DNA of 32,000 nucleotides from Raphidiopsis brookii D9 (GTDB taxonomy: Bacteria > Cyanobacteriota > Cyanobacteriia > Cyanobacteriales > Nostocaceae): assembly GCA_000175855.1 (NCBI GenBank), contig ACYB01000035.1, forward strand, positions 330,001-362,000, in the 5' to 3' direction. Shown here one piece after another: positions 11,249 to 24,877 of this stretch. The position numbers were made by a program, and so were the translations under genes. The number at the start of each line of letters is the position of its first letter. Within the stretch, counting starts at the first letter, position 1. The notes beneath the pieces are model-generated. The model was not told the DNA's origin and searched no databases. It worked only from the letters and a program-made list of their open reading frames with translations.

Positions 11249-12742
11249 ATGAGTAGTATTACCTTTCAAGAACTAGGCATTTCCCCAGAACGTGCGACCC
11301 ATCTAGAAAACATGGGGTTTACCACACCGACCAACATCCAGTCCCAAGCTATTCCCCAATTATTAGCGGGAAGGGACGTGGTAGGTCAGTCTCAGACTGG
11401 TACGGGTAAAACAGCAGCTTTTTCCCTGCCTATATTAGAGAGACTAGATCCTAACAAGAGAGCAGTACAGGCTTTAGTGTTAACTCCCACTCGTGAATTA
11501 GCAATGCAAGTTCATGATGCCATTTCCCAGTTTATGGGTGATAGTGAGCTGCGAGTATTAGCCATTTATGGTGGTCAATCCATTGACCGACAAATGATCC
11601 AATTAAAACGGGGCGTACATGTAGTAGTGGGAACTCCAGGAAGGGTAATTGACCTCTTGGAACGAGGTAGTTTAAAACTTGACCAAGTGAAATGGTTTGT
11701 TTTAGACGAAGCGGATGAAATGTTAAGCATGGGATTTATTGATGATGTGATTAAAATTCTCTCCCAAGCACCCCAGGAGCGTCAAACTGCACTTTTTTCG
11801 GCTACCATGCCCCCCTCTATTCGCCAATTGGTGAATAAGTTTCTCAATTCTCCCGTCACAGTGACCGTGGAGCAACCCAAAGCTACACCTACTAAAATTA
11901 ATCAAGTAGCCTATTTAATACCCAGACACTGGACTAAGGCTAAGGCCCTACAACCAATTCTGGAGATGGAAGATCCGGAAACAGCCTTAATTTTCGTGCG
12001 TACTCGTCGTACTGCTGCGGAGCTGACAAATCAATTGCAGTCCGCTGGTCACAGTGTAGATGAATACCACGGAGATTTATCTCAACAAGCTAGGGAAAGA
12101 TTATTAACCCGGTTCCGCAATCGTCAAGTACGATGGGTAGTAGCAACGGATATTGCTGCGCGGGGATTAGATGTTGATCTACTTTCCCACGTGATTAACT
12201 TCGACCTACCAGATAGCGTAGAAACCTATGTTCACCGGATTGGGAGAACGGGACGTGCTGGTAAGGAAGGAACTGCAATATCACTGGTTCAACCCTTTGA
12301 AAGAAGAAAGCAGCAGGCTTTTGAACGTCATAATCGCCAAAACTGGCAAGTATTGTCAATTCCCACCAGAGCCCAAATCGAGGCTAAACATATTCAGAAG
12401 TTAAAAGAGCAGGTTTCGGAAGCTCTCGCTGGTGAAAGATTAGCCTCCTTCCTTCCCATAATTAGTGAATTGACGGAAAAATATGATGCTCAAGCTATTG
12501 CAGCAGCAGCTTTACAATTGGCTTATGACCAGACACGTCCTGCTTGGTTACAAAATGGAGTAGATATTCCTGTGGAAGAACCCACACCCAAGCCAAAAAT
12601 CAACAAACGACGTGAGAGTGGTGATGGTAATGGAGTAGGTCGTGGTCGTTCTTGGTCTAAATCTGATTATGGTGACGAGAGCAAACCCACACCCAAACCA
12701 AAATTGAGACGTCGGGAACCATCGGTTAGTCCCAGCAATTAG
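11249..12742 (+). CDS. DEAD-box ATP-dependent RNA helicase with a basic Gly/Arg/Lys-rich C-terminal tail
   Basis: Q-motif region, AQSQTGTGKT (motif I), VLDEADEML (DEAD), SAT and HRIGRTGRAG (motif VI). Confidence 0.92.
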   Translation: MSSITFQELGISPERATHLENMGFTTPTNIQSQAIPQLLAGRDVVGQSQTGTGKTAAFSLPILERLDPNKRAVQALVLTPTRELAMQVHDAISQFMGDSELRVLAIYGGQSIDRQMIQLKRGVHVVVGTPGRVIDLLERGSLKLDQVKWFVLDEADEMLSMGFIDDVIKILSQAPQERQTALFSATMPPSIRQLVNKFLNSPVTVTVEQPKATPTKINQVAYLIPRHWTKAKALQPILEMEDPETALIFVRTRRTAAELTNQLQSAGHSVDEYHGDLSQQARERLLTRFRNRQVRWVVATDIAARGLDVDLLSHVINFDLPDSVETYVHRIGRTGRAGKEGTAISLVQPFERRKQQAFERHNRQNWQVLSIPTRAQIEAKHIQKLKEQVSEALAGERLASFLPIISELTEKYDAQAIAAAALQLAYDQTRPAWLQNGVDIPVEEPTPKPKINKRRESGDGNGVGRGRSWSKSDYGDESKPTPKPKLRRREPSVSPSN

Positions 12743-12803
12743 GATCTTTTATTGGGGGAAGACTTTATGTATTGAGCGATCGCCCCCCATCATAAGCTTC
12801 CAA

Positions 12804-12846
12804 CAACTACTGTGCATCCTGTTTAGTAGTTGACAGCACTAGTGCT
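12804..12846. terminator. Two adjacent hairpin-forming elements between the convergent helicase and folA genes
   Basis: The 8-bp arms caactact (12804-12811) and agtagttg (12825-12832) are followed by the perfect 12-bp palindrome agcactagtgct (12835-12846). No clear U-tract is present. Confidence 0.3.
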
Positions 12847-12881
12847 AAATTTATTGACGTTCAATTTCTACAAACTTAAAC

Positions 12882-13352
12882 TTAAAACCATTTTCTTCTA
12901 ATTTTTCCTCTTTTGGTTAATTTGCCAAAATTGCTAAATTCAGGAAAATATATATCACCTTCAAAACTCCCTTCCACAATTGTTAAATATAGCTTGTGCG
13001 CAAGTTCCATAGTCTGAGTATAAATTTGTTCTCCACCAGCAATAAATATCTCTTCTGTTTCACACATTTTGCTCCATTTAATTGCTTCCTCCAAAGAATG
13101 GAAAACCACACATCCAGGCGCTTGATAGTCAGTGTTTTTAGTTACAATAAGATTAGTACGATTTGGTAATGGATGATTGAAGGTAGCATAGGTTTTACGA
13201 CCCATAATTACAGGATGTCGCCAGGTAATTTCTTTAAAATAACGTCCATCACTGGGAATATCCCAGGGAATACCCCCACGAATGTGTTCATTTTTGGAAT
13301 CAGCTAAAATACGATCTTGGGAAATGGCAGCTATAAGACTAATAAGAGTCAT
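12882..13352 (-). CDS. folA: Dihydrofolate reductase
   Basis: GGIPWDIPSDGRYFKEIT...HPVIMGRKTY and IFIAGGEQIY fit the DHFR signature regions. An AAGGAG Shine-Dalgarno sequence precedes the ATG. Confidence 0.85.
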   Translation of the reverse strand: MTLISLIAAISQDRILADSKNEHIRGGIPWDIPSDGRYFKEITWRHPVIMGRKTYATFNHPLPNRTNLIVTKNTDYQAPGCVVFHSLEEAIKWSKMCETEEIFIAGGEQIYTQTMELAHKLYLTIVEGSFEGDIYFPEFSNFGKLTKRGKIRRKWF

Positions 13353-13463
13353 GATGGATAATACTCCTTGTTAATTTGTTTATTTGCTCTACATACCTCC
13401 AACTTTTTTAGTAAGGGGGTGTTTGACAGGGGATAACTAGACAAAAGCTATATGTTAATTTTT

Positions 13464-14870
13464 CTAGTCTTTTTGAATCGCATAGCATAAGGTACCAATA
13501 AACCATCCTGAATGCTGAGGACTTTTGGCAATTTCCGATTGCATAGTTTCCGTTCTAACTTTTAGGGCGGTAAAAAATTCTTGTAAATTATAGGTTTTGG
13601 AACCATCTTCCTCTCCGGTTCTGGTTTGCCAATCCCATTCTTTCCACCAATTGGGAACCGCTAGGGAAGAATTAATTAGATCAAACTGTAACTTGTAAAT
13701 ACCTGGTTCAGATAATTTATCAGGTTGGATAACTGCTGCAAATTTTGCTTGATTTTCCTCGGGGAGAATTTGCCAATCCTTTAATTCTATGGATGAAATT
13801 ATTTCTGAATTGCTATCGACCTGTACAAAAGTCCTCTTAAATCTATCAAACTTTTCACCTTTTACCTGAGCTTTAATCGTACTTGGATCTAGCAGTAAAC
13901 TATATTCTGAATGGAGGAAACTCACACCATAGTTAATGGTTGAACTCTGCTTTAAAGAAGAACTCAATTTTAGCATTTCCTGGTTACTTTTACTAACCAC
14001 CACACCCCCATTAACTAGGGAAAAAGGTTCAGTAATACCCTGTGGTAAGGACATGGGTGTCGCATCTAAAACAGAGATTTTATCCAATATATGATCAGGA
14101 TGAAAAATCATGAACTTGCTGTTATCACTATTTAGCAAAGCCTGATTTGTATTGTATTTTTTCAGCTGACTGAAATAGTATTTAATATCGCCATAAGGTC
14201 CAACAAATAATACATAAAATGGACGAAACTTTGCCGATTCTTGACCTGTATTATAGTCAAAACTTCTTGGATTGTTACCCTCTAAATAAATCTTACCGTC
14301 AAATTCACTTTTAATAGCCCAAATTCCTACCGCATAATCTCGATTCTCAATATTATAATAAGTATTATTAATTAATTTATTTAGCTTGGTTACATCTCCA
14401 CTATTTTGCTGCAGATCAGTAATAATCACAGTCATTTTTTTCTGCTCCTTTTCCGGGGAAATAATAGCAGCATCTATGGGACTGGAAACTTCTGGAAACT
14501 GGTTACTACTGCCATCATAAAATGTGGTGGTAACTCCATAATTATAGTATTCACTACTGGTGATCTTTTGCATAGGGCTACCAATTCGATAATATTCAAC
14601 CGGCAATTTATCACTTAACTCAAATAAATTTCTGATTGACTTGAGAGTGCTAACGTAGTTGGTTTCTCCCCCTCTTACATATCCTAACATGGAGCCACTA
14701 CCATCCAAGTAAATGCTTACACTGAGGTTATTTGATTTACTAGTATTAGCATTCTCCGCTGGAGTATGGCCAAGTTCGCATTTCAACTCTTCTTTTTTGT
14801 TACAAGCCACTATAAAAAGACTAAGTAACAACATAATCAAGCCTTTGCGGAAGTATGCTTCATGTATCAT
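13464..14870 (-). CDS. Predicted lipoprotein with an N-terminal vWA-like (MIDAS) domain and a C-terminal region of unknown function
   Basis: Signal sequence with lipobox LFIVAC (Cys codon at 14802-14804). The DGSGS (DxSxS) motif is encoded at 14691-14705 and a later TVIITDLQQN strand fits a von Willebrand A fold. The gene is divergent from the 15055 operon. Confidence 0.6.
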   Translation of the reverse strand: MIHEAYFRKGLIMLLLSLFIVACNKKEELKCELGHTPAENANTSKSNNLSVSIYLDGSGSMLGYVRGGETNYVSTLKSIRNLFELSDKLPVEYYRIGSPMQKITSSEYYNYGVTTTFYDGSSNQFPEVSSPIDAAIISPEKEQKKMTVIITDLQQNSGDVTKLNKLINNTYYNIENRDYAVGIWAIKSEFDGKIYLEGNNPRSFDYNTGQESAKFRPFYVLFVGPYGDIKYYFSQLKKYNTNQALLNSDNSKFMIFHPDHILDKISVLDATPMSLPQGITEPFSLVNGGVVVSKSNQEMLKLSSSLKQSSTINYGVSFLHSEYSLLLDPSTIKAQVKGEKFDRFKRTFVQVDSNSEIISSIELKDWQILPEENQAKFAAVIQPDKLSEPGIYKLQFDLINSSLAVPNWWKEWDWQTRTGEEDGSKTYNLQEFFTALKVRTETMQSEIAKSPQHSGWFIGTLCYAIQKD

Positions 14871-14891
14871 TTTTAACTCCTATTTGTCAAA

Positions 14892-14919
14892 ATTATTTTA
14901 TTACTTATTATAAAATAAT
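14892..14919. promoter_or_regulatory. AT-rich inverted repeat in the divergent promoter region (candidate operator)
   Basis: The 10-bp arms attattttat (14892-14901) and ataaaataat (14910-14919) are separated by 8 nt. They lie between the divergently oriented genes starting at 14870 (minus) and 15055 (plus). Confidence 0.3.
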
Positions 14920-15054
14920 ATTAAGTAACTTTACCACCAGTTCTATTGCAAATCCAAGAGTAGTATGTTAGCATAAGGGGAAACAACCATACTGAGTTTC
15001 AACAAAACGAGAAAATATTACAATATAAAAAAATACAAAAAATAGGGAGGGTTA

Positions 15055-15525
15055 ATGAAGTCCTGGCAACAAAGGATTATTGCATTCGCTTTCATTGGTG
15101 GAATCGTGATGTTTTTAGGACAAAGGGTAGTCTATGAGAATCAAATTGTACCCATTCAGCAAGTGCCAGTAGACGCTTGGCTGGTTAGTGACTATACCAA
15201 TGCTGCTCTCGCCATGTTTTTTGCTTGTCTTGTTTCAACATTACTTTGGTGTGCATTGGCAGAAAAGAGTCGCTTCAATGATGGAGCCGCTACAGCTCGA
15301 TGGAGATTACTCTGGTGGTTATTGGGAATAATACCAATGGTGACCATTGCGATCGCGGTTTTTTACATTAATCGGAGTAGCGAAGCTCACTTTTCACTAA
15401 TGGCATTCTTTTTGCTGGATGCCATCTTACTGTACTGGTTACCAACAGCAACCAGCTCCCCTGAAGCAGTAAAATATGTTCCACCATTGGCCTTTTGGTT
15501 GCGTCATAAACTAATGGGAGACTGA
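15055..15525 (+). CDS. Small integral membrane protein (about 4 TM helices), first gene of the candidate operon
   Basis: A strong SD (GGGAGGG) lies 5 nt before the ATG. There are four hydrophobic segments. The stop is 6 nt before the next ATG. Confidence 0.7.
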   Translation: MKSWQQRIIAFAFIGGIVMFLGQRVVYENQIVPIQQVPVDAWLVSDYTNAALAMFFACLVSTLLWCALAEKSRFNDGAATARWRLLWWLLGIIPMVTIAIAVFYINRSSEAHFSLMAFFLLDAILLYWLPTATSSPEAVKYVPPLAFWLRHKLMGD

Positions 15526-15531
15526 GGAAAA

Positions 15532-16467
15532 ATGTCAATTTATGTGATTGGAATTGGTGGTACTGGGGCTAAATCTATTGAAGCAATAATTCAATTAACA
15601 GCTATTGGACTCTTTGGGGAACAATCTGTAAAGTTATTGTTTGTGGACACTGATGAAACCAATGGTAATGTTTCCAGAGCGTTGAATAGTTTAGACACTT
15701 ACAATAAATGTTATGAGCTAGGACTAAATGGTAAATACCCGTGGATGCGCACAGAGATTGAACCCTTCCCCCTATGGTCACCATTCGCCGATAATCTTAC
15801 TAACAAAAACCTGGCAGTTATTTTTAACTACAATCTGGTCAAAGAAAATGATGCAGCTCTGGGTAATTTATTTGATGTACTTTATACATCAAAAGAGCGA
15901 GAAGCCAACTTGGACGTGGGTTTTAGGGGGAGACCTAACATTGGTGCGGCGGTGATGAGCCAAGTAAAAATGGATACTATTGATAATGATTTTTGGGGAA
16001 GTTTGATGGGTAAAATTCAGCAAGATACGGGAGGAGGAAAGCGACCAAAAATCTTTTTATGTGGTTCAATTTTTGGGGGAACAGGAGCTTCAGGACTGCC
16101 AACCATTGGGAGATTAATTCATAATAGATTGGAAACACTAAAAATTAGGGAGAAAGTGGATTTAGGGTGTCTATTTGTCTTGCCTTATTTTAGCTTTACA
16201 CCTGATGAGAATTCAGAGGAAGTTTACGCCCGTTCTGAACAGTTTCTTTTAAACACAGAGGCGGCACTCCGTTATTATGGCAGTCAGCCCCAGGAAATAT
16301 TTGACGTGGTTTATTTATTGGGTAATCAGCAATTATCCACGGTCAAAAAGTTCAGTATTGGCAAAAATACCCAGTGTAATGATCCTCATTTTATTGAACT
16401 TTATGCCGCGTTAGCAGCGCGACAGTTTTCATTAAAAACTACCCCGGGACAAAAACGGTGGTATTAA
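15532..16467 (+). CDS. Tubulin/FtsZ-superfamily GTPase-domain protein (311 aa)
   Basis: Motif order matches FtsZ loops T1-T5: IYVIGIGGTGAKS (T1), FVDTDETNG, GFRGRPNIGAAV (T3-like), FLCGSIFGGTGASGLPTIGRLI (T4 signature region, nt 16075-16095) and FVLPYFSF (T5-like). A GAGGA Shine-Dalgarno sequence is present. Confidence 0.7.
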   Translation: MSIYVIGIGGTGAKSIEAIIQLTAIGLFGEQSVKLLFVDTDETNGNVSRALNSLDTYNKCYELGLNGKYPWMRTEIEPFPLWSPFADNLTNKNLAVIFNYNLVKENDAALGNLFDVLYTSKEREANLDVGFRGRPNIGAAVMSQVKMDTIDNDFWGSLMGKIQQDTGGGKRPKIFLCGSIFGGTGASGLPTIGRLIHNRLETLKIREKVDLGCLFVLPYFSFTPDENSEEVYARSEQFLLNTEAALRYYGSQPQEIFDVVYLLGNQQLSTVKKFSIGKNTQCNDPHFIELYAALAARQFSLKTTPGQKRWY

Positions 16468-17039
16468 TGAATAGAGAAAATTCAAGAAACCTAACCTGGA
16501 AGGATATTCCAGATATGCAGGAAGTTTATCCAGAAATTGTAAATGCTACTCGTTTTGCCCTGGTTTGGTTATCTAATATTGCCCCGGAATTAGAACAGGC
16601 TAAAAAGATGGGTGAAAAAGTTTTTAGAACTGGTGCTGGTAGAAGTTGGTTTGTTAAATTTTTCCCAGCTTCCAGAGGGATTTTAGGAGGAGGTAGTCAA
16701 CCAATCGTTGATTTCAACAACATTAAAGAACAAGAGGCAATACAAATAATTAGCAATTGGTGTAACGACTATTTACGCTGGCTATGGAGTATTCATCAGT
16801 GTCAGGAAGAGAGTATTCAATTATTTAATGGAGATTATCTAAATACAGGAAATCTCAATGCCGAAAATCTAGCCAATTTAATTATTGAACAAACCGATAG
16901 TCGAGATAGAAACAAAAAGTCCCTGGATACAATTCAGAAACTTAAAGAAAGATTAGATCCTCAATCTATACCTGCGCCCAATTTTGGGGTTATTGGGCTT
17001 GCTAAATCTTTGTATCATGTTTGTAGGTTAACAGACTAA
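16467..17039 (+). CDS. Hypothetical protein (190 aa), translationally coupled to the tubulin-like gene
   Basis: The ATG overlaps the upstream TAA (TAATG at 16465-16469). The track's GTG at 16458 is an alternative start. No motif was recognised. Confidence 0.55.
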   Translation: MNRENSRNLTWKDIPDMQEVYPEIVNATRFALVWLSNIAPELEQAKKMGEKVFRTGAGRSWFVKFFPASRGILGGGSQPIVDFNNIKEQEAIQIISNWCNDYLRWLWSIHQCQEESIQLFNGDYLNTGNLNAENLANLIIEQTDSRDRNKKSLDTIQKLKERLDPQSIPAPNFGVIGLAKSLYHVCRLTD

Positions 17040-17089
17040 GAAATACTTGATTGAAAATTGGTGAATTAAAAAAGCAAGGGAAACTATAT

Positions 17090-17545
17090 ATGACAAGTTT
17101 ATTGTTACCAAGACTCAAAGATGATTGCGATGTTAAATCTGGAGTTGCTGGTGTGTGGGATGCTCAAGCACCAAATACCTTTAATCAAGTTGCTTCCAGT
17201 TTGGATTACAAAGCACCGGGAGAAATCAAAAATATCAGCTCTGTCCCCACTATTTGGGCCCGTCCTTTATCAGTAGAAATGGCATTGCATAATGATAAGT
17301 ATCCAATTCGAGAACAAATCATTGTTCAGTGGCAAGGAATGTTAACGGTTTTAGCCTTAGCAGAAGTGCGCGGGTTCCCCATTAAAGCCCAACTTTTGGA
17401 ATTAGGAGCTAAAAAGGATACTGACAATTTTGCTCGTTCTTTATATGAACTGTTACCAGATGATGGCAATAGTATTTACAAATTCAGTAATAACAAAAAT
17501 CCTTGGGAAGATTTATATATTTTACCTGGGATAATTCTCCCGTAG
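17090..17545 (+). CDS. Hypothetical protein (151 aa); possibly the N-terminal part of the following large protein
   Basis: ATG at 17090 (TTG at 17051 in the track). The ORF ends at the TAG at 17543-17545 and overlaps the upstream-open frame of the next ORF. Confidence 0.5.
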   Translation: MTSLLLPRLKDDCDVKSGVAGVWDAQAPNTFNQVASSLDYKAPGEIKNISSVPTIWARPLSVEMALHNDKYPIREQIIVQWQGMLTVLALAEVRGFPIKAQLLELGAKKDTDNFARSLYELLPDDGNSIYKFSNNKNPWEDLYILPGIILP

Positions 17546-17547
17546 GA

Positions 17548-20337
17548 ATGACTTCTCCAAGCACCTTAGTTGTTCCCGCTGAAGAAGGTATTTGGAATGG
17601 TTTACCTTGGTGGAATTCTACTAAAATGAGGTTTGAACCAGTACATAAATATTTAAATGATATTGAAAAAGCCCAGCTAGTATTTTGGTTAGATAACCTA
17701 AAAACAGAAATTGGGAAGCACCAAGGTAATGCTAGAGCGGTAAACACTATAGTTGGGTTAATCAATGATTTTATTGGCAGTTTGTCAGTGGAATCTTTAC
17801 CCGATTTTCAATTGACAAGCAATACAACATTTTTTGATGTCCCCTTAAATAGGGGAGCTTTAGCTGGCATGAATCTTCCTGTGAAGGTTCAATGGAGAGA
17901 ATCTAATGTGCGGGTAATTCCCAGCATGAATAAAGCTAATGTTAGACCACTATTAATTGTGGATAAAGAGATAGCGACAAGCTGGAATGAGGTATTACAA
18001 AACATTTGGGTTCACGAGGGAAAAACCTTAGCAGCTTTGCGTCCTGAAGATATAGAAAGATGGAATAAAACTAAGGAAGTAATTTGCCTAGCATCACAGG
18101 ATTTATTCCTACCTGAATTAAAATTTATAGATAAAGAAGGCATTTTACCCGGTGCTTTGCTTCCTGATGGCGGACATTCCTTAGTATTTAAAGGTCAGCA
18201 TATTACGCCTTTAATTCCCATCAATCCAATTTTATTTAGCTATTTCACACCAGAAGATTTAGCCACGAAAATTATCAAGCTTCAACTAACTAGAAATAAT
18301 TCCGGTACATCCCTGGTTAGAGTAACTTTGTCTATCCCTTTATACGGAGTAAAACAAGGGCAAGGTTCCCAGAATTTTTATGTTTACAAAGAATACCCTC
18401 TCTTGGAAGAAAATATCATTACAGAAGTGCCAGTTTTGGAAATATGGCCGGATTTCCGTGTAGAGGGATGGCAAGAATATTATGGCTTTTACTATGATGC
18501 TGCTTTGGGGGAAGACACCTTTCAAGTCAGTTTTCCTGCTGCCAAAAACACGCATAGTTTTAAAGAAGGACGGGATGCTTATCAAGTAGTTCATTTAGAA
18601 GAGTTTCCATCTTTTATTGACTGTAAAGATATCCATAAAAATACCATTGGTCTGATTTTGCTATCAACTCCAGAACAAATTAACCTAGATGGTAAATGGG
18701 TCGTTGGTGTTGACTTTGGCACATCTTTTACCAACATTTACGTCAATAAAAATAGTAGAGTTGTGGAACGTCTGGGACGAGAAAATCTCCACCGTAAAGT
18801 TACAGATGTTGCTATTGATACTAGATTCCCTAGCCTGTTTGAATTTTTCATTCCCGAAAGCTTTATTCCTGTGGATAAGCCTTTTCCCCTATCGACGGTA
18901 TTAACAACTAGGGGGAAAACTAATGCTAGGGAAGAACAAGTAAGTCCAATTTTTGATGGGCGCATTTATAGTCCTAACCTTAAAGGTTTTTCTCCCCAAG
19001 AAACATGGATAAAAACCAACTTAAAGTGGTCAACTACTAATCTTACAGATAATGAATTATTCCTCAAACACTTGGCGTTACATATTACAGCTCTAGCTGC
19101 TAGTAATGGCGTAAAAGAAATTCAATGGTCTTTATCATTTCCCTCAGCCTTCTCCTCGAGAGAACAAAATAGATACGCCTCAACGTGGAAAAGATTATTG
19201 TCTAAATTAGACCAAACTACAGGAATTAGCCATGTTATTCCAGAAAAAGATGATCCTAATTATTTTCGGACTGAAAGTATAGCATTTGCCCAATACTTTG
19301 CTGAACAAGAAAAAGGGTGTGATTTAGTTGGCAGTACCTGTATTGATATGGGTGGTGGTACTGCGGATATTTCTATCTGGGAAGATGATAAACTCCTACA
19401 TCAGTGTTCGATTTTGTTAGCGGGTAGTGAACTGTTTTCCCAGTTCATAGAAATGAAACCTAACTTTTTGAAAAAACTGGATCCTGATATTAAAGATATT
19501 AATGTTTGGGAAAGGCTAAGAGGTGCGGCTTTTAATGCTAAATTAGATGTGTGGATGCGTTTAGAGGCAGCAAATTGGTTAGAAAATAAAAGGGATAGAT
19601 TTGAGGAGGATAAGGAATTTCAAGGTCTAATCCGTCTTATGGCAATTGGTATTGCTGGATTATATTTCTATATAGGTCAAATTCTCTTTGTTCTCTCTCA
19701 AGAGGGAAAATATTCAAGAGATGAAATTACCCGAGTTTATATTGGTGGGAATGGTTCCCGTTTATTACACTGGTTAGCAGAAGGTGGTGAATTTACTCGT
19801 CACTCAGAAATCAATGGTTTATTTAATCAAATGATGACTGTATCTGCCAAATTAGCAGACACGGAGGAACCTACACGTCTGAGTCAAAACCCTAAAGATG
19901 AAGCTGCTTGCGGTTTAGTTTTAAGAACAAGAGAATTAGAAGGTTTGGGTAAAAAGGATAAGGATCCCATTATTGCTGGTGAAGATTGTATTATCAGTGG
20001 TGAAAGGTTTGGTTACCAAGAACGGTTAGATTTTAGAGGTAACAGTGTTACCCAATATGAAATTCCATCCCTAGGTCAATTGAAGTTGTTTTTAGATGCT
20101 TTTCACATCGGTTTAGATGATTTGGGTATTGAAACCATAAAGCCATTAGAAAAATACCGGGTTAAAGACCCAGGTTCAGAATATAATGTGAAATTGTGGC
20201 GTGCAACAGAAAGGGATTTGAGAAATTCTCTTAATGCTATCCAGGGTAATATTGAAGACATTAGAGAAGAACCCCCTTTTATAATGGCATTAAAAGCACT
20301 TCTAAGAGTCCTAGGTAGAGAATGGGCTGGGAAATAA
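17548..20337 (+). CDS. Large protein: N-terminal ~390 aa unknown region plus a C-terminal Hsp70/actin-fold (ASKHA) ATPase domain
   Basis: Phosphate-1 WVVGVDFGTSFTNIY (nt 18703-18741), WSLSFPSAFSSREQNRY (compare Hsp70 ITVPAYFND), ESIAFAQYF, phosphate-2 CIDMGGGTADISIW (nt 19339-19380), LAGSELFSQF, and adenosine motif VYIGGNGSRLL (nt 19735-19767). The ATG at 17548 is 2 nt after the upstream TAG, and the frame is open from 17503. Confidence 0.75.
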   Translation: MTSPSTLVVPAEEGIWNGLPWWNSTKMRFEPVHKYLNDIEKAQLVFWLDNLKTEIGKHQGNARAVNTIVGLINDFIGSLSVESLPDFQLTSNTTFFDVPLNRGALAGMNLPVKVQWRESNVRVIPSMNKANVRPLLIVDKEIATSWNEVLQNIWVHEGKTLAALRPEDIERWNKTKEVICLASQDLFLPELKFIDKEGILPGALLPDGGHSLVFKGQHITPLIPINPILFSYFTPEDLATKIIKLQLTRNNSGTSLVRVTLSIPLYGVKQGQGSQNFYVYKEYPLLEENIITEVPVLEIWPDFRVEGWQEYYGFYYDAALGEDTFQVSFPAAKNTHSFKEGRDAYQVVHLEEFPSFIDCKDIHKNTIGLILLSTPEQINLDGKWVVGVDFGTSFTNIYVNKNSRVVERLGRENLHRKVTDVAIDTRFPSLFEFFIPESFIPVDKPFPLSTVLTTRGKTNAREEQVSPIFDGRIYSPNLKGFSPQETWIKTNLKWSTTNLTDNELFLKHLALHITALAASNGVKEIQWSLSFPSAFSSREQNRYASTWKRLLSKLDQTTGISHVIPEKDDPNYFRTESIAFAQYFAEQEKGCDLVGSTCIDMGGGTADISIWEDDKLLHQCSILLAGSELFSQFIEMKPNFLKKLDPDIKDINVWERLRGAAFNAKLDVWMRLEAANWLENKRDRFEEDKEFQGLIRLMAIGIAGLYFYIGQILFVLSQEGKYSRDEITRVYIGGNGSRLLHWLAEGGEFTRHSEINGLFNQMMTVSAKLADTEEPTRLSQNPKDEAACGLVLRTRELEGLGKKDKDPIIAGEDCIISGERFGYQERLDFRGNSVTQYEIPSLGQLKLFLDAFHIGLDDLGIETIKPLEKYRVKDPGSEYNVKLWRATERDLRNSLNAIQGNIEDIREEPPFIMALKALLRVLGREWAGK

Positions 20338-20465
20338 ATTAGATGTTACCTGGAGGCTTTAATTTTATTAAAGCGCCATTGATAAATAGACTTAACTAAA
20401 TTGAGTAAATCCAATTGCTCGCTTACTTCCTTAAACCTATCCCTTGCTGAAGTTAGAGGTTGAAA

Positions 20466-21320
20466 ATGAAACACTTAAAATGCCCTGTTTGTGACTGTGA
20501 ATACAGTAAAGAAGTAAATCAGGTTTGTCCAACTTGCTCTTGGCGCATTATATCATATCCCTTATCTTATTCATATAATCTAAGTTTAATGGGAGCAAAA
20601 AGACAGGAGGAGATATTAGAATGGGAATGGGCTAATAAGTGGGCTAAAGCAATGTGGCAAAAATTATGTGAATTAAATGAAGAAAATTTGGTGCTACGCC
20701 AAAAGAATGATTCATTATCGGAAAAACATTTACAAAGTTTGCAGGACATACATAGTAATACTCAACATTTACCGGAAATATTAAGTATTTTACGCCAAAT
20801 CAGTGAAAAATACCAAAGAATTGACACTTTTTCTGACCCTTCTCAACTCCATGGGGAATCGGAGCAAATAGGTGAACAGAAAAATTACTTTTCAACTGAT
20901 CAAAAACAGTGCAGCGATGATTATATAGATGATTATATAATTGATGACCCACAAGTAATTAGTTTAGTGGAAACTTATAATAGTCATGGAGATTTTCTGG
21001 ATAAAATAGAAGTTTCTGAAACAGAAGATAGCAAGTCCCATCGTTGGTGTGGTGGTAAGGATCCGGCAATTTTTGAAGCTAATCACAAAAGTAGGGGAGA
21101 TTATTGGATTATTGATAATCAATATTTAGTGCCAAAATACGGGCAAAAGATTAATCAGCATAGTTATGAAACTATATCCATATTGTTTGAATGCTTAAAT
21201 TATCACTATAACGATTCCGTTGGTTTAAGGAGTATGATATTAGTTAAACCTGCTAAGGTTTCTCCCATTCATGATCAAGAAAAATGGAAATTACAAGACA
21301 CTGGAACTTTACAGTTTTAA
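20466..21320 (+). CDS. Zn-ribbon (CPVC...CPTC) plus coiled-coil protein with a C-terminal shared ~120-aa domain (paralog 1)
   Basis: N-terminal MKHLKCPVCDCEYSKEVNQVCPTCSW. The C-terminal domain (about nt 20946-21317) ends in LVKPAKVSP...KWKLQDTGTLQF. Confidence 0.65.
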   Translation: MKHLKCPVCDCEYSKEVNQVCPTCSWRIISYPLSYSYNLSLMGAKRQEEILEWEWANKWAKAMWQKLCELNEENLVLRQKNDSLSEKHLQSLQDIHSNTQHLPEILSILRQISEKYQRIDTFSDPSQLHGESEQIGEQKNYFSTDQKQCSDDYIDDYIIDDPQVISLVETYNSHGDFLDKIEVSETEDSKSHRWCGGKDPAIFEANHKSRGDYWIIDNQYLVPKYGQKINQHSYETISILFECLNYHYNDSVGLRSMILVKPAKVSPIHDQEKWKLQDTGTLQF

Positions 21321-21345
21321 TCAAAAACTAACCTTGGGGAATTAT

Positions 21346-22890
21346 ATGAAACTTATTAAGTATCACTTTTGCTTAACTCTGGCATTATCTGGCAAAATGC
21401 TCTTGGCCACACCACTTTATGCTACCGATATGGATAAACCGGTACAAACCCCAAACAACAATAGTGGCAATATTGAAGTTGTTAGTATCAATCACCAACG
21501 GAATATTCTAGAAAAATTTGCAGGTCTAAAAAATGCAGTAAAGTCCTTAAATCAGGACCTAAAAATTTTTGTTCAAGACAAGAAAAATACTGGAAGTTTA
21601 AATTCTAAAAAAGTTATTAGCCAAATTAATCAGTTAAAGCAAGAAGTTGCTAAATTATCTCTAACTCCCCAGTTATCTCCTTCAGTCAAAAGGAGTAATA
21701 GTATAATTAAAGAACTTGAACGTACTATGAAATATCTAGAAGACGGATTGAAAAAAAATGGAGTAACTGGAATACAAAAGTATTTGGGCTTTTTTGCCAG
21801 GAGAAGAGTAAATAACAAATACTATGGAAATTTTGGAGAGACAACACAGGAAGAAATAGAGAAATTTACTAATAAAAAAATCCAGGAACTGGAAAAAGAA
21901 ATTAAAATTATTAGTTCTTTGACTCCTAAATCTTTAACTGCTAGTAATAGCAAAAAACTTGTATTAAGTAATAGCAGTAATGTTAGTAATATTGATGGTA
22001 ATATTAACAATGATAGTAATAGTGATAAGGTTATTAACCCAAATTCTCAGCTATATAATTCGTCCAATAATTCAGAAGAGATGGCAGCACTTAAAAGAGA
22101 TTTATCTCGGATGGGTCTCATAATAGTCGTTTTATCTCTAATGTTTGCAGTTTTTGCTATTGTCTGTCTTTATAAACTTTATGAAGTTTTAGAAAACCCA
22201 GATAACCTTAACAGACTGATGAAGAATAATCAGGATATTAAGAATATTTACCAAGAGTTGAAAAATCTTAGTGGTAGACTAAAGAAACTTGAAACCTATC
22301 GGCAAAGTTTAACTGGTAATCCCAGTCCCAACTCAGATAAGTCAGATCAGTCCTCTAAGTCTCAACTTGATCAATTTTCTGCAAGTTCCCAAATTACAAA
22401 ACAAGTTAATCCAATTAATTCGGTTAATCGAGGTAAACCTCAAAAACCAACAATGGGTACCTCGTATAAGTTACACAAATTGTCAGGATCATTAGAGTCA
22501 AATAAAGAGTCAAATAGTGTTGCTAATCCCGGAAATCAATTGGTACGGGAATATAATAGTGGCGCTAGGTCACTAGCAAATACGGCAATTATTGTATCAG
22601 AAAGTGAACTTACAGCTGAACAACGTCGTCTTGGTCGTGATAGTCAACCTATTTTAGAGCCAAATAACCGGGGTAATTATTGGATTATTAACCATGGTGA
22701 TATGGATTACCTGGTTCCTAAACCGACAATGAAAGTTAATAATCATAATTATAACACCATGTCTAGACTTTTTAATTGTTTGGAATATGACCCTAACTCT
22801 AGTAAGTCTTTTAAACTGATTAACCCAGCAAAAGTTTCCCCAATGGGTGAAAAATGGCAGTTAGTCGAGGAGGGGGAATTACAATTTTAG
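21346..22890 (+). CDS. Bitopic membrane protein: signal peptide, coiled-coil and low-complexity ectodomain, one TM, then the cytoplasmic shared ~120-aa domain (paralog 2)
   Basis: ATG at 21346 with signal-like MKLIKYHFCLTLALSGKMLLATPLYA. The TM segment MGLIIVVLSLMFAVFAIVCLY is at nt 22111-22173. The C-terminal domain (nt 22537-22887) ends in LINPAKVSPMGEKWQLVEEGELQF. The track's 21271 start overlaps the previous gene and is unlikely. Confidence 0.65.
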   Translation: MKLIKYHFCLTLALSGKMLLATPLYATDMDKPVQTPNNNSGNIEVVSINHQRNILEKFAGLKNAVKSLNQDLKIFVQDKKNTGSLNSKKVISQINQLKQEVAKLSLTPQLSPSVKRSNSIIKELERTMKYLEDGLKKNGVTGIQKYLGFFARRRVNNKYYGNFGETTQEEIEKFTNKKIQELEKEIKIISSLTPKSLTASNSKKLVLSNSSNVSNIDGNINNDSNSDKVINPNSQLYNSSNNSEEMAALKRDLSRMGLIIVVLSLMFAVFAIVCLYKLYEVLENPDNLNRLMKNNQDIKNIYQELKNLSGRLKKLETYRQSLTGNPSPNSDKSDQSSKSQLDQFSASSQITKQVNPINSVNRGKPQKPTMGTSYKLHKLSGSLESNKESNSVANPGNQLVREYNSGARSLANTAIIVSESELTAEQRRLGRDSQPILEPNNRGNYWIINHGDMDYLVPKPTMKVNNHNYNTMSRLFNCLEYDPNSSKSFKLINPAKVSPMGEKWQLVEEGELQF

Positions 22891-23007
22891 GTTATGGTCC
22901 CAGTTATAGTTGTTATATTTATAGTATTAAGGCGCTTGGCTTGATAATTTTTTTTTGAGAAACAGATTTTTCTAGAATAACTTTGTTAACAATTGGAGAT
23001 TTTAAAT

Positions 23008-23895
23008 ATGGTTGATTTAAATGATATTGTTCATAGAATCGAAGAAATAGAAAATCACTTACTAATGTTAGCTGACCGCGTACAAGATGACTCAGTTATG
23101 GTAACTGGTGCTTGGAAAGTGCCAAAAATTATCCCCACAAATATATCTGAACTGGAAATAATAAAAGTTTATAATGATGTACCTAAAGTTTTATTTAAAA
23201 ACTCAATTGTTACGGAGTTAACCGAAGAAAGTTATCGAGAAGATAACCGAGATCAATCAATTATCTTGGAATTTGATCAATATGGTAAATATTGGTTAAT
23301 CGTCTCAGATGAGAATAATGTTTTTGTTTTACCTGCAATGGATATCAAGTTACACATTTATAAGCTAAAAAGCATGGCTAAGGTATTTGATTTTCAGGGC
23401 ACTCCCTCTATGGAAAATCATTGTCTGTTAATTAAACCTGCAAAGGTTCAAAGTTTACCTAGTGGGAGAGAATGGAAACTAGAACAAAAGGGAATTCTAG
23501 AGTTTACTAGTAATGTTCATCAAGATTCGTTGAGAAATTTCTTTTATACCTTACAGGATAGTCAAGCAAATACCAATTTAGAAATACTCAAAATTAATAA
23601 GCAATTAAGTCAAATTGAACTGCAATTACAACAGGTTCCTGAAGAGAGTCAAAATATAGGTTGGCAAGTTAACATATCAGAAACCATTAAAGATAACCAA
23701 GCAAATACCAATTTAGAAATACTCAAAATTAATAAGCAATTAAATCAAATTGAACTGCAATTGCAGGAGTTCTCTCAACGGTTTCAAGACTTACAGTATA
23801 AACTTACAAAAATGTCAGTTGATATTAAAGATTATTTTGACCTACAAGTAGATTTACTTAAGGTCCGTTTAGAATCCTTGGAAAATATAAAGTGA
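23008..23895 (+). CDS. Soluble coiled-coil protein with the shared ~120-aa domain in the centre and a duplicated C-terminal coiled-coil unit (paralog 3)
   Basis: The domain lies at about nt 23152-23505 (GKYWLIV...LLIKPAKVQSLPSGREWKLEQKGILEF). It is followed by two copies of QANTNLEILKINKQL(S/N)QIELQLQ. Confidence 0.6.
   Translation: MVDLNDIVHRIEEIENHLLMLADRVQDDSVMVTGAWKVPKIIPTNISELEIIKVYNDVPKVLFKNSIVTELTEESYREDNRDQSIILEFDQYGKYWLIVSDENNVFVLPAMDIKLHIYKLKSMAKVFDFQGTPSMENHCLLIKPAKVQSLPSGREWKLEQKGILEFTSNVHQDSLRNFFYTLQDSQANTNLEILKINKQLSQIELQLQQVPEESQNIGWQVNISETIKDNQANTNLEILKINKQLNQIELQLQEFSQRFQDLQYKLTKMSVDIKDYFDLQVDLLKVRLESLENIK
23563..23762 (+). repeat. Intragenic direct repeat: two 65-bp copies with a 135-bp period
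   Basis: Positions 23563-23627 and 23698-23762 are identical except for one position (g/a). The repeat is in frame (45 aa period). Confidence 0.9.
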
Positions 23896-23993: not shown

Positions 23994-24877
23994 CTAGTCA
24001 TTATCCCAGGCCAACTTAGCTGCACCTACCATACCTGCACTATTACCCAATTGTGCTGGTAAAATTTGTAGACCCATACGAGAACTTGGTAAAACACGTC
24101 TTTCAATTTCTTCTTGCATTGCTGGTAAAAAATACTCGAAACTAGCACTAATACCACCACCAATAATAATTGCTTGGGGGGTAAGTACATATATTAAACT
24201 GGTTAAACCAATGCCCAGGTCTCTACCATATTCTTGCCAAAAAGTCAAGGACTGAATATCACCTTGTTTAGCCAATTCCCCTAGTCTAGCTGGGTCCTTT
24301 CCTGTGCGACGATGAATAGCACCAATGGAGGTGTATTGTTCTAAAGAACCTTGATTACCACTGTTACATGATGGCCCATTAGGATTAAGAGTAATTAGTC
24401 CTAGTTCCCCTGCTGCACCTTGATGACCAACAAATAGTTTGCCATGCAAAATAATAGCTCCACCCACACCGGTTCCCAAGGTCAACAAGATTAAGTTTTG
24501 AAAATCACGCCCTGCACCTAACCAAGCTTCTCCTAATCCTGCGCAATTGGCATCATTGGCAAGAATTGTGGGTATTCCCGTACGGTTTTCTAACCATTCT
24601 GCTAATGGTACATTGTCCCATCCCTCAAGATTGATGGCCACTTTGGCAACTCTCCCCGTTGCATCCACAGGTCCTGGAGTTCCTACCCCCATGCCTAGGA
24701 TTCTATCATTCTGCTCAATCAGGGAATTTATCCCCCTAACATTGTAGATAATACAGCTTCTGGAGTCGCTGGTTTAGGAGTCTGTAATATTATAGTTTGT
24801 AAGCAGTTACCATTAGGATCAAATACGCCTAGTTTTATGGATGTTCCACCTATATCAATACCAATTACCACTTCCAT
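23994..24877 (-). pseudogene. ROK-family sugar kinase (glucokinase-like) interrupted by a 1-nt frame break in a C5/G5 homopolymer
   Basis: The N-terminal 49 codons (24877-24731: MEVVIGIDIGGTSIKLGVFD...) end at a TAA at 24728-24730. The downstream frame reads ...GINSLIEQNDRILGMGVGTPGPVD...ANDANCAGLGE. One extra base in the run at 24732-24736 would join the two frames. Confidence 0.8.

Follow-up and report, generated by a model that had tools for sequence, protein, structure and literature searches.

What connects three neighbouring genes of Raphidiopsis brookii D9 whose products carry quite different partner modules? The genes, here called A, B and C, lie one after another on the + strand at 20466–23895 of the stretch of DNA that we analysed (contig ACYB01000035.1, positions 330,001 to 362,000; 32,000 nucleotides, hereafter the window), and their products have a block of about 120 residues in common. 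The open reading frames (ORFs) span 20460/20466–21320 (A), 21271/21346–22890 (B) and 22993/23008–23895 (C), with alternative starts separated by a slash, and the block occupies nucleotides 20946–21317, 22525–22887 and 23146–23508 of the + strand, respectively. In pairwise BLASTP comparisons, the blocks of A and B were 46% identical over 123 amino acids (E = 2e-24), those of B and C 30% identical (E = 6e-13) and those of A and C 25% identical (E = 1e-8). The similarity of the three blocks is real and far beyond chance. A first-pass annotation of this DNA, made from its letters alone, had claimed a shared domain of about 120 residues in three adjacent genes, and E-values from 2e-24 to 1e-8 bear this out. 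All of the motifs that it had listed are present (YN, VSET, G(D/N/K)YW(I/L)I, (Y/F)(L/V)(V/L)P, LF(E/N/D), PAKV, W(K/Q)L and G.L(Q/E)F), and, as it had also described, the domain runs right up to the stop codon in A and B (...LQF-stop) and is internal in C, where about 130 residues follow. When a profile hidden Markov model (HMM) of the block was run against all window ORFs, no further copy was found beyond A, B and C. We give roughly an even chance to the reading that this domain is a non-catalytic protein–protein docking module specific to one conserved cyanobacterial gene cluster.

We first consider whether the domain belongs to a known family. Over the block, the three window proteins had no match in Pfam-A 2025 or NCBIfam 20 at E ≤ 0.1, and no Pfam family was shared across the 102 members of the domain family that were scanned. 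PADLOC 2.0 and PHROGs 4 returned nothing, and a profile search of the PDB sequences with the domain gave a best E-value of only 0.83. The domain, which the first-pass annotation had called unnamed, thus has no match in Pfam, NCBIfam, PADLOC, PHROGs or the PDB sequences. Literature searches on the locus tags, on Tubulin_2 and on tubulin, HSP70 and vWA in cyanobacteria found no description of the cluster or the domain. An AlphaFold2 model of the domain, built from a 9-sequence alignment, was confident (predicted local distance difference test, pLDDT, 92.8; predicted template modelling score, pTM, 0.86) and showed a mixed alpha/beta structure of four helices and nine strands in the order H H E H E E E H E E E E E. 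Foldseek searches with this model found no match, the best E-values being 0.52 in the PDB and 0.73 in BFVD.

A conservation profile of 294 non-identical domain instances revealed thirteen positions at which at least 88% of the instances agree: Y13, V27, G53, Y55, L66, P68, F86, P104, A105, W116, L118, G122 and F126. These best-conserved residues are mostly aromatic, glycine or proline, and no polar residue is invariant among the 294 instances, a pattern that speaks for structure or binding rather than for catalysis. The domain might instead bind a small molecule or a nucleic acid, as a distant version of a known fold that Foldseek missed in the PDB and BFVD. We consider this the least probable of the explanations weighed here, with only a slight chance of being correct: the domain has no invariant basic or polar cluster and no HMM match in any library, the name given by JGI was assigned automatically, and a Zn ribbon is absent from gene C.

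How widespread is the domain? An exhaustive profile HMM search found 1,039 representatives at E ≤ 1e-3, of which 736 remained at E ≤ 1e-10 and 208 at E ≤ 1e-30. A word-indexed homologue search with the three copies had returned eight proteins, which suggested a tiny family; the exhaustive search overturned this. Every named source among the representatives is a cyanobacterium. This domain family of about 1,000 representatives is uncatalogued. Domain architectures were counted in the best 148 of the 1,039 representatives. A single copy was present in 67 of these, two copies in 74, three in 6 and four in 1; single-copy proteins that consist of the domain and span 120–180 amino acids also exist in the family. 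The domain ended within 10 residues of the C-terminus in 136/148 and started within the first 40 residues in 64/148. A Zn ribbon of the form CxxC...CxxC was found at the N-terminus in 21/148, and a transmembrane (TM) helix in 19/148. Pfam detected WD40 repeats in 4 of the 102 representatives scanned; in some family members (L019 991–3330, P0034, P0037 and P0059) an N-type domain, then a coiled coil and then a C-type domain precede a seven-blade WD40 propeller. The partner modules that recur across the family are thus the Zn ribbon, a signal with a TM helix, the coiled coil and WD40. Of these, the Zn-ribbon, signal-plus-TM and coiled-coil architectures are those of A, B and C, so the first-pass view of one domain on differently localised scaffolds holds for the family at large.

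The terms N-type and C-type refer to two subtypes of the domain. The N-type lies at N-termini ahead of a coiled coil (...YWLLPK...WKLE...) and the C-type lies at C-termini (...EVSETEESI.QRRLG...YLVPK...WQL...). When instances were classed by their position in the protein, the nearest neighbour was of the same subtype in 225 of 230 cases; average-linkage clustering of the instances had only peeled off outliers. In many members both subtypes occur together with a coiled coil, or the domain is present in two to four copies. The three blocks of the window, which had been described as one and the same, are similar as claimed and can be refined into two subtypes, as A and B carry C-type domains and C carries an N-type domain.

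The architectures of the three window genes differ outside the domain. Gene A (20466–21320, + strand) begins with a CPxC...CPxC Zn ribbon at 20481–20537 (CPVC...CPTC, residues 8–26), followed by a helical linker and the C-type domain at 20946–21317. The Zn-ribbon protein is the first gene after the ATPase gene Hsp70L in most loci, and its orthologue in Trichodesmium has a weak match to Pfam Zn_Ribbon_1. Gene B (21346–22890, + strand) encodes a hydrophobic N-terminal signal at 21346–21423, a presumably periplasmic helical region with a PG_binding_1-like motif at 21736–21879, a TM helix at 22111–22173 (residues 281–301 of the long ORF), a low-complexity cytoplasmic linker between the TM helix and the domain, and the C-type domain at 22525–22887. 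The orthologues of B mostly have lipobox-type signals (e.g., LIGC, LVAC and MVGC). Taken one at a time, these orthologues had no Pfam match for the peptidoglycan-binding-like motif; a profile of the motif from 12 orthologues gave a partial match to residues 7–57 of 3bkh, the peptidoglycan-binding domain of phiKZ gp144 (E = 7.4e-4), and a match to 9xps (E = 0.0066). The signal or lipobox and the single TM helix suggest that this motif is periplasmic.

Gene C (23008–23895, + strand) carries the N-type domain at 23146–23508 and a coiled-coil-like tail. This tail is heptad-like and gives only weak matches to coiled-coil families, so that of the three partner modules claimed in the first-pass annotation the Zn ribbon of A and the signal and TM helix of B stand, and the coiled coil of C is less clear. 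The tail also contains a near-perfect duplicate of 23 residues, QANTNLEILKINKQL(S/N)QIELQLQ, at 23563–23631 and 23698–23766, the two copies being 45 residues apart. Ahead of its domain, gene C has a short N-terminal extension consisting of a helix and then a V.VTGA motif (22993–23150 in the window), which it shares with some of the N-type proteins (P0031, P0034 and P0040). Exact matches to deposited proteins corrected two of the reading-frame starts: from the ATG at 21346, B is identical to EFA72858.1 (CRD_02236), and from the ATG at 23008, C is identical to EFA72859.1 (CRD_02237). The deposited proteins for B, C and p156, a small gene further upstream, are all annotated 'hypothetical protein'.

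Next, we focused on the genomic surroundings of the domain. A genome scan seeded with a C-type alignment yielded 16 loci and is therefore biased towards the C-type, which was offset by nine look-ups of other family members. All 16 loci are cyanobacterial, and all 16 have Hsp70L upstream. They come from Calothrix, Nostoc, Cyanomargarita, Symploca, Trichodesmium (three loci), Okeania, Microcoleus, Pelatocladus, Sphaerospermopsis, Anabaena, Xenococcaceae, Pleurocapsa, Chlorogloea and one uncultured genome. The tubulin-like gene TubL, p156 and p468 are also present in nearly all of them, where the flank suffices. The same context was seen again in independent look-ups, among them Trichodesmium and Limnofasciculus, that covered the contigs of P0004, P0005, P0009 and P0017 and Cylindrospermopsis raciborskii; in two others, the P0027 contig carries an Hsp70L copy downstream and P0007 adjoins a p468 homologue. 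Taken together, domain genes adjoin the conserved cluster in 22 of 23 informative contigs, one further contig being too short to judge. The association with tubulin-like and Hsp70-like genes on which the first-pass annotation had staked its proposal is therefore upheld.

The gene order recurs as well: Hsp70L is followed by the Zn-ribbon protein, the signal-plus-TM protein, the N-type coiled-coil protein and 0–4 further domain genes, so that an array comprises 3 to at least 7 domain genes. In every complete array there are two or more C-type domains and one or more of the N-type, and the window has the minimal set of C, C and N. It follows from this fixed gene order that the cluster is conserved and that A, B and C each represent one of three orthologous groups in it. 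The three copies had been labelled paralogs; their similarity is not in doubt, and the label can be refined in that they are not recent or casual paralogs, as each copy belongs to an orthologous group of its own in a fixed order. Scans for promoters and terminators gave results at or below shuffle expectation and were uninformative, and Tandem Repeats Finder (TRF) reported no relevant tandem repeat.

The core of the cluster consists of two nucleoside triphosphatases (NTPases) and two envelope proteins. TubL (15532–17039, + strand) is a tubulin-like GTPase of about 500 amino acids, 490–510 in intact orthologues, and is split in the window into 15532–16467 and 16458–17039. It matches Pfam Tubulin_2 (PF13809) with 31.6 bits in the window and 35.5 bits in the Trichodesmium orthologue, at a cut-off of 27, and contains the motifs GIGGTGAK (15550–15573) and the tubulin signature GGTGASG (16075–16095). 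Hsp70L (17090–20337, + strand) would be an Hsp70/actin-like (ASKHA-type) ATPase of about 1,090 amino acids when intact, and is split here near 17524. Its motifs GVDFGTSFTN (18706–18735), IDMGGGTADISIW (19342–19380) and IGGNGSRL (19741–19764) follow the ASKHA order of phosphate-1 (DxGT), phosphate-2 (DxGGGT.D) and adenosine (GG..), and are invariant in 12 orthologues. The protein is well conserved, with 52–87% identity to the orthologue of Trichodesmium MAG_R02 across cyanobacterial orders outside that lineage and a mean column identity of 68% across orders. Hsp70L had no match to Pfam HSP70 and no detectable Hsp70 substrate-binding domain, and searches against the PDB by sequence and by profile gave nothing significant; its matches to FtsA (E = 0.003–0.008) and Hydantoinase_A were sub-threshold. 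As the motifs are present without a family or PDB match, we call the protein ASKHA-like by motif and not Hsp70. Thus, the ATPase motifs behind the earlier label 'Hsp70-like' are confirmed, whereas membership of the HSP70 family is not, the FtsA matches being sub-threshold only.

The two other core genes encode a membrane protein and a lipoprotein. The first gene of the + strand operon, p156 (15055–15525), encodes a small membrane-integral protein of some four hydrophobic helices, the four hydrophobic segments being conserved in 12 orthologues; an orthologue is present in 14/19 loci, and the window protein is identical to R. brookii D9 EFA72852.1. The gene p468 (13464–14870, − strand) is divergent from the cluster in the window and lies at the far cluster end in Trichodesmium and Okeania, with an orthologue in 13/19 loci. 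Its product is a conserved lipoprotein with a lipobox signal, a conserved N-terminal cysteine, DGSxSM and TVIVTD motifs, and a beta-sandwich C-terminal half. The putative metal ion-dependent adhesion site (MIDAS) motif DGSGS (14691–14705) stands at the end of the first strand, TVIVTD forms a strand, and the pattern alternates between beta and alpha; in addition, four homologues in UniRef are named 'VWFA domain-containing protein'. An AlphaFold2 model (pLDDT 86.1) matched Ig-like domains in Foldseek over the C-terminal half only; there was no vWA entry among the top 50 Foldseek matches, and neither Pfam nor the PDB gave an HMM match. The vWA assignment of p468 is thus partly supported, and the protein is best called vWA-like. 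Parts for the periplasm, the membrane and the cytoplasm are thus all encoded in the cluster, and, with a vWA-like lipoprotein and a protein with four TM helices among them, the system appears to span the envelope.

The region around p468 varies between close relatives. On the metagenome contigs L024 and L025, a p468 homologue with 97% identity has a TonB-dependent receptor and NDK downstream, where the window has DHFR (12882–13352); as these neighbours differ, close relatives do not all have the same flank beside the cluster. In the C. raciborskii locus (L022), seven genes of the Uma2 family, which has a restriction-endonuclease fold, lie beside p468 at 11653–21407. Six of them are consecutive (14452–21407), and an IS605/Cas12f-like TnpB fragment and a resolvase separate the first Uma2 gene from the rest.

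Genes A, B and C read through cleanly, without a frameshift. TubL, when compared with the orthologues of Anabaena and Sphaerospermopsis, has a 1-nucleotide deletion in an A5 run near 16450 (16440–16460), and Hsp70L has a 1-nucleotide deletion in a T4 run near 17524 (17515–17530) compared with intact orthologues. TubL is intact (506 amino acids) in C. raciborskii L022 and is split into 363 and 141 amino acids in a second assembly, L023. Downstream of the domain genes, a ROK-family glucokinase (23994–24877, − strand) is also split, into a 49-residue N-terminal ORF (24728–24877) and a 232-residue ORF (23994–24692). Three homopolymer-type or split genes in 10 kb point to sequencing or assembly error rather than decay, and the three frameshifts are probably such indels; recent pseudogenisation could also be their cause. 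The D9 genome was reportedly sequenced by pyrosequencing.

With which partner would the domain dock? We compared the window with C. raciborskii. Among the core proteins, p468 was 87% identical, TubL 82% in its N-terminal part and 63% in its C-terminal part, Hsp70L 85% and 68% in the corresponding parts, and p156 73%. Over their whole length, A and B were each 44% identical and C 58%. The domains of A and C were about 65% identical, and the linkers of A and B 37–49%. A constrained domain attached to fast-evolving spacers is the pattern expected of a docking module. A clue to the partner comes from unusual loci. Inside three arrays there is a second copy of Hsp70L that has no N-terminal ~280–350 residues (L013 10646–12742, L016 10354–12591 and L027 7529–9604). 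In Limnofasciculus baicalensis (L002 4600–11500), the cluster comprises p468, p156, residues ~486–1091 only of Hsp70L and three domain genes, with no TubL. The truncated copies and the Limnofasciculus variant fit domain proteins that work with the C-terminal ATPase half of Hsp70L. On thin evidence, we suggest that the domain proteins work with this half, and TubL with the N-terminal part.

In the docking reading, the scaffolds of A, B and C would be recruited through their domains to a single partner in the cytoplasm, for which the C-terminal ATPase half of Hsp70L is the likeliest candidate. Gene B would tie a cytoplasmic assembly of TubL and Hsp70L through the inner membrane to the cell wall, and A and C would add other contacts or oligomerise the assembly. 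The structural type of conservation, the terminal position of the domain and the synteny all point towards such an adaptor function; that the domains bind, what they bind to and that the system spans the envelope are inferred. The first-pass annotation had likewise proposed adaptors; the domain, the scaffolds and the synteny on which it relied are now well established, the adaptor function is what they suggest, and a homotypic link to the core finds no support at the sequence level. Alternatively, the domain could be a tag that marks A, B and C as substrates for the Hsp70-like ATPase to fold, unfold or translocate. The terminal position of the domain would suit such a tag, and so would the adjacency to a protein with Hsp70-type ATPase motifs. 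We nevertheless find this highly improbable, as the domain model is a confidently folded globular structure, unlike the extended hydrophobic peptides to which classical Hsp70s bind, and as Hsp70L lacks both a detectable substrate-binding domain and a Pfam HSP70 match.

Several observations weigh against the docking module and its proposed partner. An hhalign comparison with the 294-instance profile found no copy of the domain in Hsp70L, TubL, p468 or p156 (probability ≤ 0.3%), and these values lend no support to the homotypic coupling of the domain to core proteins that had been suggested earlier. The argument for Hsp70L as the partner comes from a few loci only, and decay may be under way in some of them; the core genes of L015 and Trichodesmium erythraeum are fragmented. 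In the window itself, both core NTPase genes are frameshifted. The labels 'Hsp70-like' and 'vWA-like' derive from motifs, and HMM and Foldseek searches did not confirm them. Finally, P0038 (L028 10001–10975), a protein with a TM helix and two C-type copies, is an orphan far from the core genes. The neighbours of P0038 are genes for a DDE transposase and a reverse transcriptase of the group-II-intron type.

If the core proteins contain no copy, the domains may bind each other. N-type and C-type domains would then associate with one another or with themselves, and A, B and C would form a coiled-coil lattice or filament of their own, a scaffold of the cytoskeleton or the envelope that the NTPases only remodel and on whose core proteins the domain does not dock. 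The robustness of the two subtypes (a same-class neighbour in 225/230), both of which occur in every complete array, is consistent with this, as are the many proteins that unite both subtypes with a coiled coil or hold two to four copies. Proteins of 120–180 amino acids with a single domain are harder to reconcile with a lattice, and the strict linkage to Hsp70L, together with the extra Hsp70L copies in arrays, is more simply explained by a direct use of Hsp70L. We therefore regard self-association as unlikely, and return to the docking module.

What might the cluster do? It could be a conflict system, with an anti-phage or programmed-death function, in which the NTPase core sets a threshold and the domain proteins sense invaders or form death assemblies, a logic already put forward for vWA/GTPase/tubulin/HSP70 systems in multicellular bacteria. 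The combination of a constant core with a variable array, which differs in copy number and whose proteins diverge faster than the core, is reminiscent of such systems, and so are the WD40 fusions, the mobile elements by the orphan copy and the Uma2 array beside the C. raciborskii cluster. The systems of Kaur et al. 2020 (PMC7159879) also combine tubulin or HSP70 with variable components. However, no component had a PADLOC match, no recognisable toxic or enzymatic effector is encoded, and neither a DO-GTPase nor GAP1 was seen. Moreover, A, B and C keep their order as orthologous groups from one cyanobacterial order to the next, their domain is conserved at about 65%, the cluster is kept among housekeeping genes in the small R. 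brookii genome, and unicellular genera carry it too. The fixed order, the conserved domain, the lack of a PADLOC match and of a toxic effector, and the housekeeping setting argue against a defence island, and we consider a role in conflict decidedly unlikely. As a bolder and still rather doubtful proposal, the domain may be a new fold that serves as the common plug of a hitherto undescribed envelope-spanning cytoskeletal or mechanochemical machine found throughout the cyanobacteria, and not of a defence island. In such a machine, TubL and Hsp70L in the cytoplasm would be coupled via the domain adaptors to peptidoglycan, through gene B, and to the periplasmic vWA-like lipoprotein.

If this is true, the cluster is a conserved and wholly uncharacterised system in which a divergent tubulin and a giant actin/Hsp70-type ATPase are combined and linked to the wall. 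Its carriers include Trichodesmium, Crocosphaera, Cylindrospermopsis/Raphidiopsis, Microcoleus, Nostocales and Pleurocapsales, among them ecologically important cyanobacteria. The shared domain would provide an experimental handle, as it is a small, confidently folded module that marks every accessory protein. The databases would gain a new family with some thousand representatives, and there would be a testable case for the long-standing prediction that Tubulin_2 proteins act in membrane complexes (Makarova & Koonin 2010).

How does the cluster compare with known systems? DO-GTPase/GAP1 systems are found mainly in Firmicutes and Actinobacteria, and tubulin and HSP70 appear alongside them as separate themes (PMC7159879). 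Like the cluster described here, they have a constant NTPase core, variable linked genes, and Zn ribbons and TM segments, and the idea that protein–protein contacts of a small shared domain couple the components applies to both. No cluster protein matched a P-loop GTPase family; the absence of GAP1 was judged from architecture only, no GAP1 model being used. The gene content is fully accounted for by p468, p156, TubL, Hsp70L and domain genes. With neither a DO-GTPase nor GAP1 seen, we rejected the assignment to DO-GTPase/GAP1 systems. Death-like domains are helical, and effector-associated domains (EADs) are shared between the core and the effectors of their systems. The EADs have been likened to Death-like domains (PMC7159879), whereas the domain here is alpha/beta instead of an all-alpha Death-like bundle and is absent from the core proteins. 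In its terminal position on unrelated architectures (C-terminal in 136/148), the domain does resemble EADs.

The coiled-coil proteins of cyanobacteria offer another comparison. A role in cytoskeletal or envelope-associated structures has been proposed for cyanobacterial coiled-coil-rich filament-forming proteins (CCRPs; e.g., 10.1101/674176, PMC7002697), which gene C and many family members, rich in coiled coil, would resemble to that extent; the abstract of that paper makes no mention of a link to a tubulin-like/Hsp70-like operon. A further likeness, that of the gene B motif G-L...V..IQ..L...G.FG..T...I..F to PG_binding_1, concerns the periplasmic module of gene B and not the shared domain.

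The closest relatives in gene content are the operons of FtsZl1, a Tubulin_2 protein, with vWA and OmpA, which were predicted to form a membrane-associated complex and have no experimental characterisation (Makarova & Koonin 2010, PMC2875224). Both systems combine a divergent Tubulin_2 GTPase with a secreted or membrane protein of vWA type (here vWA-like), membrane proteins, a peptidoglycan-binding protein (here putative) and lineage-specific genes without recognisable domains, and TubL shares with FtsZl1-type proteins the GTP-binding motifs and a Tubulin_2 match (PF13809, above the 27-bit cut-off). One FtsZl1 operon, in Magnetospirillum, even includes a DnaK-like gene (PMC2875224). The two are nevertheless distinct. 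FtsZl1 has about 1,000–1,100 amino acids with a long C-terminal extension, compared with about 500 in TubL, and the peptidoglycan-binding element of gene B resembles PG_binding_1 and not OmpA as in the FtsZl1 operons. The ASKHA-like protein of ~1,090 amino acids is a constant partner here, and the shared domain is not described in that study (PMC2875224). In T. erythraeum, the one FtsZl1 that the study lists is Tery_1707 (1,090 amino acids, at 2.6 Mb) and the cluster described here lies at 1.85 Mb. We therefore rejected the possibility that the cluster is the published FtsZl1 operon, as FtsZl1 of T. erythraeum is encoded at another locus and is twice the size. The three genes of R. brookii thus lead to a new domain family that the catalogues lack, set within a variation on the Tubulin_2/vWA/peptidoglycan-binding theme for which we found no earlier description.

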